Shown here one piece after another: positions 46,164 to 52,050 of a DNA stretch of 64,000 nt. The notes under the pieces were generated by a model that worked only from the letters and a program-made list of their open reading frames with translations, searched no databases and was not told the origin of the DNA. The position numbers and the translations under genes were made by a program. Source of the DNA: Escherichia coli (GTDB lineage Bacteria; Pseudomonadota; Gammaproteobacteria; Enterobacterales; Enterobacteriaceae). The stretch is taken from assembly GCF_029227855.1 (NCBI RefSeq), contig NZ_CP074357.1. One strand, 5' to 3'. How positions within the stretch are numbered: the first letter of the stretch is position 1; each line of letters begins with the position of its first letter.

Positions 46164-46571
46164 ATGAATGAAAACTCAGTAATCTTAATAAGTTTATTTT
46201 GGTTTTTTTTGGGATCGAGTGTTGTAGCTGGTTTTATGGATGCATCATTATATTGCTGGATTTTTGCAGCCATAAGCGCATTGTTTCTTCTTTCGGTGAT
46301 ACAAACACCAAAGGAGTTAACGGTATCTATTAGTCATATGACAAGCAAAACGCTGATCTCAAAGACAGATGATGGATACACATTTAGCATTTCACCTTAC
46401 GGAGACGGGTACCGCTTATCAGTCTCGCCTGAAAATCGTCACAATGGTACCCAAAGCTTTGACGGCTGGTTCCCACGTTTTTTTTCCGAACCACAGTATG
46501 CCAAATCATCTTTAACTAAATTTCTCGGTGAGTCCTTAGTATGGGAAGAAGATTCAAGTAATGCTCTATGA
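46164..46571 (+). CDS. hypothetical membrane protein (135 aa)
   Basis: Two N-terminal hydrophobic segments. Confidence 0.5.
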   Translation: MNENSVILISLFWFFLGSSVVAGFMDASLYCWIFAAISALFLLSVIQTPKELTVSISHMTSKTLISKTDDGYTFSISPYGDGYRLSVSPENRHNGTQSFDGWFPRFFSEPQYAKSSLTKFLGESLVWEEDSSNAL

Positions 46572-46616
46572 GATTACTTATTATAAATTTTTCTATTAAT
46601 CTCCATGGAGTGATAT

Positions 46617-46871
46617 ATGAATTTGGCCTATTTTTTATTTTTGTCTATAACTGTTATGCTTACGAGCTTTATTATTAAATCACTTGTCGTATTGGTAAAG
46701 TTCAAATTACTTCGTGATGAACGTCTCGAATATACCAGCAATAAAAATATTGATGAGATGTACGATTTAATGAATGCGAAGGAAGAAATCCTCATAAGGC
46801 ATCATAAGCAGATGTTGGCATTGCATCTTTCACTATTAATATTCGTTCTATTTATTGCTTACATTTACTAA
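46617..46871 (+). CDS. hypothetical small membrane protein (84 aa)
   Basis: Hydrophobic N- and C-terminal segments. Confidence 0.45.
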   Translation: MNLAYFLFLSITVMLTSFIIKSLVVLVKFKLLRDERLEYTSNKNIDEMYDLMNAKEEILIRHHKQMLALHLSLLIFVLFIAYIY

Positions 46872-47196
46872 AAATAATTTTATTCAACATTTCAACAAAG
46901 GGTTTTCAATGGAAAGCTTCGAAACTGAACAAATGATTCAATATGCTTTCTACATAAATATCGTAATAACGACTGGTTTGGCATGGTTTTGCTTGCGGTC
47001 AGGATTGCATTACAATTTTTTCAGAAAAGCAGAGAGTGCCAGAACAAAAGGGCTGAGTAGTACCTCTACTGAACACGGTCCAGCAATAGTGAGACTAAAG
47101 AAGCTACAAGCATTAGTAGATTTTATTAGTAACTGTGCTTTTCTAATCCTTTCAATTGGCACAGCTTATATTTTGTATGTTTGGAGCCACAGTTAA
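46855..47196 (+). CDS. hypothetical small membrane protein (probable start at MESFETEQ)
   Basis: Two hydrophobic segments; start uncertain. Confidence 0.4.
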   Translation: MLTFTKNNFIQHFNKGFSMESFETEQMIQYAFYINIVITTGLAWFCLRSGLHYNFFRKAESARTKGLSSTSTEHGPAIVRLKKLQALVDFISNCAFLILSIGTAYILYVWSHS

Positions 47197-47232
47197 CTCA
47201 TACGAGGTAACTTCGGCAGGTAACAACTTCTA

Positions 47233-47463
47233 ATGCAGGACTTTAATAACTCTAAGGGATTCTACATGAAAAAAGACGATCTAATTACGCGTTGTAAATT
47301 ACTTAAAGGCGAACGCGATGAGTCTATCTTTACCATATTAATTGGGATAGTAGTAAAGCTGGGGCTGGTAGGCCTGGCATTCTATCTGTTGCTTGGTTCC
47401 ACGATTGATTGGTCAAGCTGGAAAACTTATGCCGCCATGTTGATCTTGGGAGCATTTCTCTAA
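47233..47463 (+). CDS. hypothetical small membrane protein (76 aa)
   Basis: C-terminal hydrophobic segments. Confidence 0.4.
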   Translation: MQDFNNSKGFYMKKDDLITRCKLLKGERDESIFTILIGIVVKLGLVGLAFYLLLGSTIDWSSWKTYAAMLILGAFL

Positions 47464-47799
47464 AATCTTGAACCTTTTTTCACTCATTACAAGCCATGAC
47501 CTAGTGCGTAGATCATACGATCTTTAAACCTTATGTCATTGATTTATAAGTACATATAACAAAGATTATGTTAAATACTGTATGTATGTACAGCATCAAC
47601 AGTTGCCCCCCTCATATTGAGGTAATTGCTACATTCATACCACTATTCTTCTTATAGTATCGACATCCTGAATTATTGCACCCTACTGCTTTGTCTTTAG
47701 CTGTTCCGAATTAAAATTCATTGCTCAATTTGGATCACATGACGATCAGCGTATTCCTTTGCTTTATCAAAGTTAAGTTTTTAAAACATAAGATATGTA

Positions 47800-48261
47800 A
47801 TGACAAATTCTCAATCTGATTTTCCTTTGAACGATCAAAATTTTCAGGCAGATTTGCTGAAAATCAAAAAGGTTTTCGCCGACCTTATAACGCAGGCATC
47901 AGATGGTAAGATACCCATAAGGTCTTCTCATGTACACGGCTTACACCATTTCGAGGAGCTCTACATCCGGGCAAGAGCAGGCATGTGTTCGGTCCTGGGA
48001 TATCCGGTCATGGTTGTTTCAACTATCTCAGTTAAAGAGCCCGGCACAGGCATTTTTAGAGCGCTTCTTGCAGAATTGAAATGTATTGCAGATGAACAAA
48101 ATTACATTTTGAAAATTGAAAATGTACTGCCTCCCCTATTCCGCAAATACCTTATTCAAGAAGGTTTTGTTTTCCCAGGTGAACCTTGGATGTGTGGTTC
48201 CGGCTATTGGTTTAAGAACCCACAAGTACTTCATGAAAATATTGAGTTATTATCTGTTTAA
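47800..48261 (+). CDS. hypothetical protein, possibly GNAT-like acetyltransferase
   Basis: 153 aa; ..VKEPGTGIFRALL.. fits the K/R-x-x-G-x-G/A acetyl-CoA motif loosely. Confidence 0.45.
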   Translation: MTNSQSDFPLNDQNFQADLLKIKKVFADLITQASDGKIPIRSSHVHGLHHFEELYIRARAGMCSVLGYPVMVVSTISVKEPGTGIFRALLAELKCIADEQNYILKIENVLPPLFRKYLIQEGFVFPGEPWMCGSGYWFKNPQVLHENIELLSV

Positions 48262-48290
48262 GTCGATCTAACAATTTCACTGGAGCTAAC

Positions 48291-48698
48291 ATGTCCCCGG
48301 AATTGGTATCAGACATTGCAAGAGTGGCGCATGAAAAGCTACTTTCAATTTTAACGGAGTGCGGCATAGAGAAGACGGCAGGCACTTGCCTTTTTGCAAG
48401 CTATCTTGTGTGTTATTTAGCAAAAACTAAAGGTCTAGATGCTGTTGTCCGTGGGGGTAACGGTGCAGATGATGGCGGTATATTTATAGAGTGTGGTGGC
48501 TTTGGCCATTATTGGTGTGAGTTGAATTTCGAAGAAGTGCAATATTATATTGACATCACTTCCGAACAGTTTGGGTTTCATCCATACATAGTGAAACTCG
48601 CCAACGATATAACAGGATGGCCTCGATATATTCCTGGTGATCAGGAAACGGTCGATAGTCATTTAGAACAATTATTACGCGACGGCTATACAGAATAG
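48291..48698 (+). CDS. hypothetical protein with Cys/His/Asp pattern
   Basis: 135 aa; ..GTCLFASY.., ..GHYWCE.., ..YIDIT.. could form a thiol-hydrolase triad. Confidence 0.45.
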   Translation: MSPELVSDIARVAHEKLLSILTECGIEKTAGTCLFASYLVCYLAKTKGLDAVVRGGNGADDGGIFIECGGFGHYWCELNFEEVQYYIDITSEQFGFHPYIVKLANDITGWPRYIPGDQETVDSHLEQLLRDGYTE

Positions 48699-48748
48699 GC
48701 TGCGTATACCCTATCGCAGCCTTTCAGGCTCTTAACCCTTGTGACCTG

Positions 48749-49276
48749 TTAACGGAACCACTCAGGATGACGCTGCCGATCAACTTTGATAACCTGCGAA
48801 TTAAATTCAACGACATCCGCTGGAGTAAGCATTAATTCATCAGGATTTACAATAAATGGTCTTAAAACCACTTCGCCACCGTCTTCTTTTGCACCGTAGA
48901 TATTAATAAGAAAGTGCAGTCGTTGATTTCCTTCAGCATTGCGTTGCCATTCTCTAAAAGTCAAAGTTTGTTTAATATAGTTTGTTAAAAGAAATGCGAA
49001 TTCAGATTCTTCCGTTTGTGAGATACCGATTTTGTTAGACATTTTTTTTAGTATCTTTCCGAGCATGGACACACAGGCATCTAGACTTAACGATGTTGAA
49101 ATTTTGGTCGTATTAAAATCCTCCTGCGAAAGTGAAATCATCCATGTATTATCTTTATGATAGTCGGTAATATAAATAAAATGAGATGTAAAAGGCGTTG
49201 AGTGATTGAACTCTCCTAAGTTCCATCCATACTGACTCACTGTATTTGAGCTAAGTTCTTTGTCGGTAATGTTCAT
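48749..49276 (-). CDS. hypothetical protein (175 aa)
   Basis: ORF track; convergent with the 47800-48698 pair. Confidence 0.5.
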   Translation of the reverse strand: MNITDKELSSNTVSQYGWNLGEFNHSTPFTSHFIYITDYHKDNTWMISLSQEDFNTTKISTSLSLDACVSMLGKILKKMSNKIGISQTEESEFAFLLTNYIKQTLTFREWQRNAEGNQRLHFLINIYGAKEDGGEVVLRPFIVNPDELMLTPADVVEFNSQVIKVDRQRHPEWFR

Positions 49277-49442
49277 AATTCATACCTTTCGATAAAGTCT
49301 GTAATGATAATTAGCTATCTCAAAGGACCAGAACAACTCTTGAAATAACCACACTCGAAGAATTTATCATATTGAACACCCCTACCTAATAACCTTGCCG
49401 ACTTAATAAATCACAATAGCCCTCCCCTGACATTTTAAAATG

Positions 49443-49829
49443 CTACTTGAATTTTTGATAGCTTATGGTTGTTTTATGTTCTTTGTGATACGCATATGTC
49501 ATCTTCTCTTTCCAGTACCAATCTTGTAGATCCTGCAAGTCTAGCCCATTTTTCTCACGTATGCTTTCGTGTAATTCGCTAAGCGCGAGTTTATCATTAG
49601 GTTTATAAATGGCTAATTTTTCTTCAAATAAATCCAGCCAACGTTTCCCCATCTTACGACGCAAAACAAACACCATCGTGATAAATGTAATGAAATGCAC
49701 AGCAATTAGTTCCAACTTATGCGATTGCTGACCAGATAAAATTACTATTGTAACAACAGGGATGGCCGTATATAAAGCAATCAAAGCGACCATAAGTTGG
49801 TATGGTTTTTCCCGTATTACCATGTTCAT
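49443..49829 (-). CDS. hypothetical membrane protein (128 aa)
   Basis: Two predicted TM helices; start lies 40 bp from the Tn1721 IR. Confidence 0.45.
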   Translation of the reverse strand: MNMVIREKPYQLMVALIALYTAIPVVTIVILSGQQSHKLELIAVHFITFITMVFVLRRKMGKRWLDLFEEKLAIYKPNDKLALSELHESIREKNGLDLQDLQDWYWKEKMTYAYHKEHKTTISYQKFK

Positions 49830-49902: not shown

Positions 49903-51700
49903 CTAAGGTTTTCCGGGCATCCGTAAGGGCCGAAACTTCCCGTCTTCCAGTCTGCGGCTCTGCCGCCAGACGTAATCGCCGGTTAGGTTGATGTGCTCCC
50001 AGCCCAGCGGCGACAGGAATTGCAGCAGCTCGCCGTCCACCGGCTTGCCGGCCTCGACCAACCCCTGGGTGGCGCGTTCCAGGTACACCGTGTTCCACAG
50101 CACGATAGCCGCCGTCACCAGGTTGAGGCCGCTGGCCCGGTAGCGCTGCTGCTCGAAGCTCCGATCCCTGATTTCCCCAAGGCGGTTGAAGAACACCGCC
50201 CTGGCCAGCGAGTTGCGCGCCTCACCTTTGTTCAGGCCGGCATGCACGCGGCGGCGCAGTTCAACACTTTGCAGCCAGTCCAGGATGAACAGCGTGCGCT
50301 CGATCCGGCCCAGCTCGCGCAGGGCCACGGCCAGTCCGTTCTGGCGCGGGTAGCTGCCGAGCTTGCGCAGCATCAGCGAGGCGGTGACGGTGCCCTGCTT
50401 GATCGAGCTGGCCAGGCGCAGGATGTCGTCCCAGTGGGCACGCACGTGCTTGATGTTCAGGGTGCCGCCGATCAGCGGGCGCAACGTCGGGTAGGCTTGC
50501 ACGCCCTGCGGCACGTACAGCTTGGTTTCGCCGAGGTCGCGGATGCGCGGCGCGAAGCGGAAGCCTAGCAGGTGCATCAGGGCAAAGACGTGATCGGTGA
50601 AGCCGGCCGTGTCGGTGTAGTGCTCCTCGATCCGCAGGTCGGACTCGTGGTACAGCAGGCCGTCGAGCACATAGGTGGAATCGCGGACGCCGACATTCAC
50701 CACGCGGGTGCTGAACGGCGCGTACTGGTCGGAGATATGGGTATAGAACAGCCGTCCCGGCTCGCTACCGTACTTCGGGTTGACGTGCCCGGTGCTCTCG
50801 CCCCGGCCACCCGCGCGGAAGCGCTGGCCATCGGAGGATGAGGTCGTGCCGTCGCCCCAGTGGGCGGCAAAGGCGTGGCGATACTGGTGGTTGACCAGCT
50901 CGGCCAAGGCCGCCGAATAGGTTTCGTCGCGGATGTGCCAGGCTTGCAGCCAGGACAGCTTGGCGTAGGTCAGGCCGGGGCTCGACTCGGCCATCTTGGT
51001 CAGCCCGAGGTTGATCGCATCACCGAGGATTGCGGACAGCAGCAACGTCCTGTCTTTGGCCTCGGCCCCGTCCTTCAAGTGGGTGAAGTGGCGGCTGAAG
51101 CCCGTCCAGTCGTCCACGTCCATCAGCAGTTCGGTGATCTTGATGCGCGGCAGTAACTGGCTGGTTTGGTCGATCAGCGCCTGCGCCCGATCCGGCACCG
51201 CCGCATCCAGCGGGGTGATTTTCAGCCCTGACTCGGTGAGGATGGCATCGGGCAGCTCGTTGTCCTTGGCCAGGCGGGTGACGGTGGCCAACTGCTCGTC
51301 CAGCAGCTGCAAACGCTCTTCCAGGTACTGGTCGCTGTTCGGGTTGATCGCCAGGGGCAGGGCCTGCTCGCGCTTGAGTGCGGCGAACTTCTCGGCCGGC
51401 AGCAGGTAGTCGTCGAAGTCGCGGAACTGCCGCGAGCCCTTGACCCAGATGTCGCCGGAGCGCAGGGCGTTCTTCAGCTCGGACAGGGCGCAGATTTCGT
51501 AGAATTTCCGGTCGAGGCCTTCCGGGGTGATCACCAGCGGCTTCCAGCGCGGCTTGATGAAGGCCGTGGGTGCATCGGCCGGCACCTTGCGCAGGTTGTC
51601 GGCGTTCATCTCACGCAGGGTCTGCACGGCTGCCAGCACGCCTTGCGCGGCCGGCCCGTGCTGTTCCCCAACTTTTCGCTCGGCGAAGAGTATGAACATG
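49903..51700 (-). pseudogene. tnpA: Tn1721 tnpA' (3' portion of transposase gene)
   Basis: 606-aa ORF ending ..[11 protein letters not shown]; 5' boundary approximate. Confidence 0.8.
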
Positions 51701-52050
51701 CGCCGCCGGCGACGAATCGCCAAATCTCACCGTATCTCCCGAGCGGACGATTTCGCACCGGTCTGCCCGTCGAAGGGCTTGCGATCGAACGGGGCGACCT
51801 TTTCTATGCATGTCCGCGAGCCAGCGTCTTTTATGGCACGGCGCTCGACGCCGACCTTCGGACGCGCGGCGTAAGCACGCTTGTCATGGCCGGGATAAGC
51901 ACCACCGGCGTTGTTCTTTCAAGCGTCGCCTGGGCTAGTGATGCGGACTACGACGTGCGTTTGGTCCAGGACTGCTGCTACGACCCGGATCGGGATGCCC
52001 ACGAAGCTCTGTTGCGTTCCGGGTTCGGCGGACGTGTACAGGTCGTGTAA
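51643..52050 (+). pseudogene. isochorismatase-family hydrolase, C-terminal fragment
   Basis: ..STLVMAGISTTGVVLSSVAWASDADYDVRLVQDCCYDPD..; N-terminus missing. Confidence 0.4.

Follow-up and report, generated by a model that had tools for sequence, protein, structure and literature searches.

Two adjacent genes, open reading frame (ORF) A and ORF B, in a 64,000-nucleotide stretch of Escherichia coli DNA (contig NZ_CP074357.1 of RefSeq assembly GCF_029227855.1; "the window" below means this whole stretch) belong to new families within known superfamilies. A is a minimal protein of the GNAT fold, and B, which begins after a spacer of 29 nt (48262-48290), is predicted to be a minimal cysteine enzyme of the transglutaminase-like or papain-like kind (Table 1). 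Taken on their own, these fold assignments, which come from structural models, are held with high confidence. As to function, we tentatively favor the view, at somewhat less than even confidence, that A and B are cytoplasmic enzymes which modify proteins, are transcribed together yet are separable, and serve plasmid establishment or host manipulation. Both ORFs are present as an initial annotation of the stretch had described them, A with 153 residues and ..VKEPGTGIFRALL.. at residues 78-90, B with 135 residues downstream, and the sequence of neither begins with a hydrophobic segment.

A and B are genes and not chance ORFs: they are annotated in RefSeq, the 1.8-kb stretch that holds both recurs in 1073 PLSDB plasmid records, their motifs are kept in distant homologs, and their structural models have high predicted local distance difference test (pLDDT) scores. 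The carriers of this 1.8-kb stretch come from E. coli, Salmonella, Enterobacter, and Klebsiella and are mostly conjugative plasmids of 200-350 kb. In total, A is found in ~1,700 sequenced plasmids and B in ~2,100. In plasmid pSTM6-275 (IncHI2A, MOBH, MPF_F), the two genes lie in a backbone segment with a Tn7-like sil/pco island on one side and, on the other, a transposon that bears tet(A) and a class 1 integron. RefSeq labels both products "hypothetical protein" there, and wherever else they are annotated they are likewise hypothetical. The resistance-plasmid setting that had been proposed is correct: the plasmid is of the IncHI2 type, and sil/pco, tet(A), and class 1 integrons lie close by. 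Neighbors of A and B in pSTM6-275 encode DUF4942, DUF1173, a Dcm methylase, a thermonuclease, and several small ORFs with no assigned function; across the loci bearing A or B, neighbors include DUF1173, thermonuclease, Dcm methylase, H-NS, phospholipase D (PLD), the theta subunit of DNA polymerase III, umuDC, Hok, and Fic. Literature searches found no publication that mentions either protein.

Neither protein had a Pfam, NCBIfam, or PADLOC match when the proteins of the window were scanned (for A, E up to 1 with Pfam and NCBIfam). A matched only families of unknown function in PHROGs (E about 0.003), a profile search of the PDB with A returned no GNAT and nothing significant, and just 1 of 13 A-family members matched Acetyltransf_1, at a below-threshold E of 0.0059; no curated GNAT sequence model matched A above threshold. 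Word-indexed searches also gave few relatives, and a profile of concatenated A and B homologs was hence run against a representative library of 1.84 billion proteins. This produced 283 matches at E <= 0.001. Among the best 150 of these, most corresponded to the B half and were single proteins of ~140 amino acids (aa), and ~15 corresponded to the A half.

An alignment of 13 diverse A-family sequences (33-50% identity) leaves R57, V70, V72, G84, F86, L90, K94, K105, E107, V109, R115, L118, and F123 invariant. The AlphaFold2 model built from this family alignment (pLDDT, 91.5; predicted template modeling score [pTM], 0.86) consists of helix 13-35, strands 40-44, 51-59, and 70-78, helix 85-100, strand 103-109, helix 112-120, and strand 133-137, and it displays the mixed sheet and the beta4-alpha3-beta5-alpha4-beta6 core of a GNAT. 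In a Foldseek search with this model, the top 50 matches were all GNATs. The best size-matched one was AcrVA5 (PDB 6iuf); the structural matches also included TacT, AtaT, and GmvT and, at a greater distance, the aminoglycoside acetyltransferases (AACs) AAC(2'), AAC(6'), and AAC(3). On the evidence of its model, A represents a GNAT-fold family that is new and has no Pfam entry.

Motif A of GNATs, Q/R-x-x-G-x-G/A, lies between beta4 and alpha3 and binds the pyrophosphate of coenzyme A (CoA). The corresponding loop of A is K79-E-P-G82-T-G84, in which G84 is invariant, G82 is kept in most of the 13 homologs, and the first position is Lys or another residue, not Q/R. GNAT motif B, at the beta5-alpha4 position, corresponds in A to the stretch ENV...FRKYLIQEGF. 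The fold-level check that the initial annotation had called for was positive for A, with a GNAT core and with the G-x-G loop at the very residues that had drawn attention.

AcrVA5, an anti-CRISPR acetyltransferase of mobile elements, resembles A in being a GNAT fold of minimal size. Identity between the two is only 12-14%, with no detectable sequence homology, and two features set A apart: an additional N-terminal helix of 35 residues and a C-G-S-G-Y-W motif conserved at the C terminus. IncHI hosts (Enterobacteriaceae) are not usually carriers of Cas12a, so any target of A would differ from that protein. With the GNAT superfamily more broadly (NatD/Naa40, Naa50, PaiA, and the toxins TacT, AtaT, and GmvT), A shares the core of beta4, G-x-G loop, alpha3, beta5, alpha4, and beta6, as well as an E-G-F-type motif B. 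It departs from the superfamily and the toxins in lacking canonical beta1 and alpha2 (our own numbering), both absent from the N-terminal half of the model, in matching no Pfam GNAT model above threshold, and in having no ribbon-helix-helix (RHH) antitoxin partner.

These features bear on two roles that had been suggested for A, antibiotic acetyltransferase and toxin component, neither of which held up. An AAC-like, antibiotic-modifying enzyme would fit the GNAT fold, the multiresistance plasmid, and the distant structural matches to AAC(2'), AAC(6'), and AAC(3), but we find it highly unlikely, given that no NCBIfam or antimicrobial resistance model matches A and that the AMRFinder and RGI results in PLSDB mark neighboring genes (tet(A), dfrA12, aadA2, and pco) and not A. 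Moreover, A is a backbone gene that plasmids share with jumbo phages, and part of the GNAT N-terminal half is absent from its model, where the substrate-binding arm is cut down to one helix and two strands. It is also very unlikely that A is a plasmid-stabilizing GNAT toxin in the manner of TacT, AtaT, or GmvT, with B as its antidote. The presence of these toxins among the structural matches, the plasmid setting, and the adjacency of two small genes speak for such a system; however, the adjacent RHH/DUF1778 antitoxin gene of type II systems such as TacAT, AtaRT, and GmvAT was looked for among the neighboring ORFs and not found, and neither A nor B contains a DNA-binding domain. A is furthermore solitary in jumbo phages and several plasmids, B occurs mostly without A, and the shortened N-terminal half of A is at odds with a canonical GNAT toxin.

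For B, an alignment of 105 family members (25-55% identity) leaves C33, G55, G56, H73, and W75 invariant and G31, G63, G72, Y74, D88, T90, D92, Q93, F94, and G95 nearly so. The AlphaFold2 model from this alignment (pLDDT, 96.1; pTM, 0.89) has a nucleophile helix packed against an antiparallel sheet, as in the transglutaminase/papain fold, and judged by element position in the model, Cys, His, and Asp follow one another on the canonical elements. The fold-level check was thus positive for B as well, and the "conserved-looking" Cys, His, and Asp positions proposed earlier proved to be conserved indeed, with C33 and H73 invariant and D88 kept in at least 90% of the sequences. Makarova, Aravind, and Koonin reportedly described, in 1999, the motifs G-x-C-x-x-F-A, H-a-W-x-E, and D-p-T for the transglutaminase-like superfamily. 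The B motifs G-T-C-L-F-A-S, G-H-Y-W-C-E, and D-I-T-x-x-Q-F-G parallel these. Neither Pfam Transglut_core nor Transglut_core3 nor related models matched window B above threshold, and a PDB profile search with B found nothing significant; sub-threshold matches were seen in 3, 3, 5, and 1 of the 105 B members, to models that include Tox-PLDMTX, Transglut_core, and Transglut_core3. We conclude from the model that B represents a family new to the transglutaminase-like clan, one that has no Pfam entry and lies below the thresholds of the existing models.

Structural matches of B include effector deamidases and proteases, and two groups of known proteins merit comparison. The first is Atu2299 (PDB 2hly) and the lasso-peptide B2-type transglutaminase-like proteases (Pfam Transglut_core3), to which B is 15% identical. 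Lasso cyclase, RiPP recognition element (RRE), and precursor genes, such as surround lasso B2 proteases, are absent near B, and a role as a lasso-peptide B2 leader peptidase was rejected, with no Asn-synthetase-like cyclase, RRE/B1, or precursor among the annotated or scanned neighbors. The lack of any conserved neighbor of B homologs likewise disfavors a lasso-peptide cluster. To our knowledge, the Gly/Asp-rich loop of the B family (residues 54-63) does not occur in B2 proteases. The second group comprises effectors of papain/transglutaminase fold (SseI, SpvD, PMT C3, OspI, Ceg10, LapG, and protein-glutaminase). In contrast to these deamidases and cysteine proteases, B carries no secretion signal or delivery domain and occurs on plasmids and chromosomal islands, including those of non-pathogens, and its similarity to them is much below that within those families. 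Because a defining feature of each was looked for and not found, we regard A and B as neither an AAC, nor a GNAT toxin, nor a lasso-peptide protease. As a separate observation, the Gly/Asp-rich loop (48450-48479; R-G-G-D/N-G-x-x-D-G-G, invariant in the B family) resembles a single calcium-binding turn of the GGxGxD, repeats-in-toxin (RTX) type.

The distribution of the two families rules out an obligate pair. B at 90-95% identity occurs in 401 plasmid records, as opposed to a single record for A in the same identity band, and the four genome contigs examined that carry 93%-identical B (Superficieibacter, Pseudocitrobacter, Huaxiibacter, and Atlantibacter; our loci L010-L013) have no A ORF. On a Klebsiella IncFIB/IncHI1B plasmid (CP138698), A and B homologs lie ~95 kb apart. 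A homologs of 37-41% identity were found in 53 jumbo-phage records (Erwinia, Dickeya, and Yersinia), with no match for B in the same phage comparison; a scan of IMG/VR viral contigs found no relatives of A. Besides these phages, A is solitary, with no Cys/His/Asp neighbor, in loci L007, L052, L053, and L054/55. B, for its part, has homologs in Pseudomonas, Burkholderia, Hydrogenophaga, Rhodanobacter, Sphingomonas, Rhizobiales, and a Saccharibacteria metagenome-assembled genome (the main genome scan used 11 B sequences), and clustering of all ORFs within 3.5 kb of B homologs revealed no shared neighbor. The "pair" of the initial annotation fails as an obligate association, each gene being often found without the other. 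The A-to-B order, with a gap of 29-33 nt, is nonetheless kept from IncHI2 to IncHI1-type plasmids (L003; Salmonella p08-4425.1), across which identity is 50% for A and 57% for B.

Some features of these other loci were recorded alongside. In L010-L013, a 223-aa ORF with a lipoprotein-like N terminus and an 85-aa membrane protein stand upstream of B in the place of A (e.g., L011, 3872-4801). In both Yersinia phage fHe-Yen9-02 and Erwinia phage Y3 (L046, 5001-5444 and 6322-6858; L047, 2483-2923 and 4220-4765), the A homolog lies three to four annotated coding sequences upstream of an RNA 2'-phosphotransferase (Tpt1/KptA-like) gene and close to a gene of the radical S-adenosylmethionine (SAM)/MoaA-like type. 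This arrangement may reflect synteny and nothing more, or it may hint that the target is related to RNA.

A third family, here called C, is the other neighbor of A. Its members are uncharacterized proteins of ~135-155 aa with the motifs E-C-D-G, P-H-x-W, D-Y-R-L-R-M-W, and P-H-G, and their Cys, His, and Asp follow one another in the order seen in B and at similar spacing. C was found in 2257 plasmids of many genera. Its position relative to A varies: C precedes A in Klebsiella IncHI1B plasmids, does so with a 4-nt overlap in L050/L051, and forms the order C-A-B in L003, and the order is A to C in L002. Since 6 of 31 C members gave weak, sub-threshold matches to Transglut_core3, C is probably another minimal transglutaminase-like enzyme, so far as sequence comparison can tell. 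Homology of C to B was considered and could not be demonstrated, as the hhalign alignment did not extend beyond the His motif (probability, 0.3% with 3 sequences and 7% with 31), and a PDB profile search with C gave nothing significant.

Transcription of A and B probably starts at one shared promoter, which would lie ~220-260 nt upstream of A and carry a LexA operator, and stops at a hairpin after B. We infer co-transcription from the lack of any terminator-like site between them; the short spacer with its GGAG, the hairpin, and the A-to-B order common to IncHI2 and IncHI1 are further signs of an operon. The hairpin after B has a folding energy of -16.5 kcal/mol (z, -3.46), and 0 of 200 shuffles folded as well; an Rfam scan of 47200-49400 returned nothing. 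The gap 5' of A measures 336 nt. Within it, a ~55-bp element (CATTGATTTATAAGTAC.TATAAC...GATTATGTTAAAT) is also present at L002 4459-4511 and L003 2686-2737, where it precedes different genes. Window positions 47200-47576 are 98% identical to L002 4136-4511, and the element is ~81% identical to that of L003 (2686-2737); the TTATGTTAAAT element likewise stands 5' of an operon with an A homolog in IncHI1B plasmids. A simple scan of the plus strand at the cassette showed no strong sigma-70 site.

Directly after this element comes the putative LexA box TACTGTATGTATGTACAGCA. Its rough heterology index of 5.5 is within the range of E. coli SOS boxes, and the pattern CTGT-N8-ACAG has 3 matches in the window, where 0.54 would be expected. 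A perfect box, GACTGTATATATATACAGTG, occupies the equivalent place in a Klebsiella IncHI1B plasmid (L048, 3116-3135), 5' of an operon that consists of a 104-aa ORF, C, A, and a 218-aa ORF. No LexA box was found upstream in L002, L003, or L006, and the box was thus rejected as a feature of all A loci, being present in only 2 of the 5 plasmid lineages examined. The 98% homology of the window with L002 stops exactly at the LexA box, at position 47576. This junction suggests either a joint left by recombination or a promoter cassette that is portable. Among the IncHI1B plasmids with the conserved element, L048 has the perfect box and L006 has none. SOS control of the IncHI2 A-B transcript through the box is plausible, though not universal. 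The other two matches to the pattern lie far from A and B. At 551-570, GACTGTTTTTTTGTACAGTC is identical to a sequence between intI1 and dfrA12 in L001 (20505) and matches the LexA site in the promoter of intI1, the integrase gene of class 1 integrons, so that a class 1 integron probably lies at the start of the window. The third, TACTGTGTTTACATACAGTC (59984-60003; rough heterology index, 8.6), is in a region with IS26, a truncated LysR gene, and a 404-aa major facilitator superfamily efflux gene that is apparently floR-like, and may be a chance match.

We propose the following picture for the two enzymes. A, which in its model consists of one N-terminal helix followed by a core of three strands, the G-x-G loop, and alternating helices and strands (a-b-a-b), would most likely bind an acyl-CoA in the cleft of the G-x-G loop, alpha3, and alpha4, through the loop K79-G84 and the helix that starts at R115. 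It would then transfer the acyl group to an amine of a macromolecule, namely, a protein lysine or N terminus or, less likely, an aminoacyl-tRNA, in a mode that we liken to the inactivation of Cas12a by the equally small AcrVA5. In B, C33 is predicted to attack the carbonyl of an amide or peptide bond, giving a thioester that H73 and D88 would help to resolve; as a result, a protein substrate could be cleaved or deamidated or could undergo acyl transfer. The conservation of G84, E107, and R115 is consistent with this chemistry for A, and that of C33, H73, W75, and D88 with the chemistry proposed for B. The most likely role would be to modify host or defense proteins so that the plasmid, or the jumbo phage in the case of A, can establish itself. 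We suggest this role because AcrVA5 is the closest size-matched analog of A, because A is common to plasmids and jumbo phages, because the structural matches of B include effector deamidases and proteases, and because the genes occur in a setting of methylases, nucleases, H-NS, DNA polymerase III theta, umuDC, and toxin-antitoxin genes.

Several observations weigh against this proposal. The establishment or anti-defense role is drawn from context, and PADLOC, a library of defense and not of anti-defense systems, gave no match. The locus is flanked by the sil/pco island and a resistance transposon and is not demonstrably in the leading region. Literature searches by protein accession, by IncHI2 and LexA, and by GNAT and transglutaminase-like proteins on conjugative plasmids found nothing relevant. 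In A itself, the usual Q/R of motif A is replaced by Lys, and at the alpha4 position where many GNATs have a Tyr as general acid, family members have Y or F, so that A could lack catalytic activity. One alternative is accordingly that A is a catalytically dead GNAT-fold binder, such as an inhibitor of, or immunity factor for, the neighboring cysteine enzyme or a host protein. We consider this improbable, since conservation at 33-50% identity extends to the G-x-G loop, E107, R115, and the E-G-F motif, as cofactor binding and catalysis would demand. AcrVA5, which has the same minimal size, is moreover an active acetyltransferase that acetylates Cas12a (bioRxiv 10.1101/2021.11.16.468554).

A further point against full independence of the two enzymes, and for some functional coupling, is that A adjoins a Cys/His/Asp protein, B or C, in 5 of ~10 A-bearing lineages (A-B, C-A-B, C-A, C-A with overlap, and A-C). 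It is possible, though on balance unlikely, that A works together with B (or with C) as a two-enzyme module which acts on the same target or as writer and eraser, for instance, an acyl-lysine writer with an amidase or a toxin and an antidote that are both enzymes, as in DarT/DarG. The partner position is filled by two different Cys/His/Asp families in varying gene order, which keeps a functional link of A alive, and the Transglut_core3 matches of C itself fit this idea. However, each family is far more often alone, with ~400 plasmids carrying B without A, the ~95-kb separation on IncHI1B plasmids, and A solitary in phages and in L007, L052, L053, and L054. Distant C members likewise occur without A, C is also found on plasmids where A was not found, and neither A-B double-half proteins nor A-B or A-C fusions were present among the best 150 of the 283 profile matches. 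All of the linked cases are IncH-type plasmids, so inherited synteny suffices as an explanation. A bolder version, which we consider a long shot, is an SOS-controlled two-enzyme module of large conjugative plasmids in which A is combined with an interchangeable partner (B in IncHI2/IncHI1, C in IncHI1B and relatives) and its GNAT half is shared with jumbo phages; it would covalently modify a host immunity or nucleoid protein, through acetylation joined with deamidation or cleavage, or else act as an enzymatic writer/eraser (toxin/antidote) pair. If true, it would represent a new class of plasmid establishment or anti-defense system.

Table 1. Positions of the features discussed (window coordinates unless a locus is named)
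Feature	Position	Strand	Remarks
Conserved promoter-like cassette (..CATTGATTTATAAGTACATATAAC..GATTATGTTAAAT)	47523-47576	+	Upstream of A; recurs in related plasmids; putative promoter
Near-consensus LexA (SOS) box TACTGTATGTATGTACAGCA	47576-47595		~205 nt upstream of the A ATG; directly after the ..GATTATGTTAAAT element
ORF A	47800-48261	+	153 aa; WP_000185304.1; minimal GNAT-fold protein (model)
K79-G84 codons (KEPGTG)	48034-48051	+	Loop between strand 70-78 and helix 85-100 (model); corresponds to GNAT motif A
GGAG, candidate ribosome-binding site for ORF B	48282-48285	+	5 nt 5' of the ATG; read from sequence, inside the A-B spacer
ORF B	48291-48698	+	135 aa; WP_000074418.1; predicted minimal transglutaminase-like/papain-like Cys-His-Asp enzyme
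C33 codon (TGC)	48387-48389	+	Predicted nucleophile, N terminus of helix 33-46 (model); invariant in 105 sequences
H73 codon (CAT)	48507-48509	+	G-H-Y-W-C-E motif, start of strand 73-80 (model); H73 and W75 invariant
D88 codon (GAC)	48552-48554	+	D-I-T-x-x-Q-F-G, end of strand 83-88 (model); at least 90% conserved
Stem-loop GGCTGCG-N10-CGCAGCC, then TTTC	48698-48721		Likely terminator between convergent B and 175-aa ORF
Family C members	L006 4500-4967; L003 4866-5321; L002 6660-7070; L050 2591-3004		Beside A homologs in IncH-type plasmids

The immediate surroundings of the two genes contain further ORFs. A 175-aa ORF on the minus strand (48749-49276), convergent with B, is kept beside B, also in the contigs that lack A; its only matches are weak ones, to Pfam iSTAND (E 0.031) and PADLOC PDC-M24A (E 0.0094). 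Directly 5' of the A promoter region, four successive small plus-strand ORFs (135, 84, 113, and 76 aa; 46164-47463) have hydrophobic segments and gave no family match. On the other side, just past a 128-aa ORF at 49443-49829, a 606-aa minus-strand ORF of the Tn3-family transposase type (49903-51723) marks the edge of the plasmid backbone segment.

IncHI2, IncHI1, and IncHI1B plasmids are major carriers of mcr-1 and of extended-spectrum beta-lactamase, carbapenemase, and typhoid resistance genes, and much of their 200- to 300-kb backbone is annotated as "hypothetical." Our analysis gives two such backbone genes testable biochemical identities and flags family C as a third, related family. If A does not act like AcrVA5, a suspected hidden resistance or toxin gene has still been struck off the list. 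If it does, that is, as an enzymatic, sub-stoichiometric inactivator of a host protein, A would be a candidate anti-defense or host-takeover factor of both large plasmids and jumbo phages.

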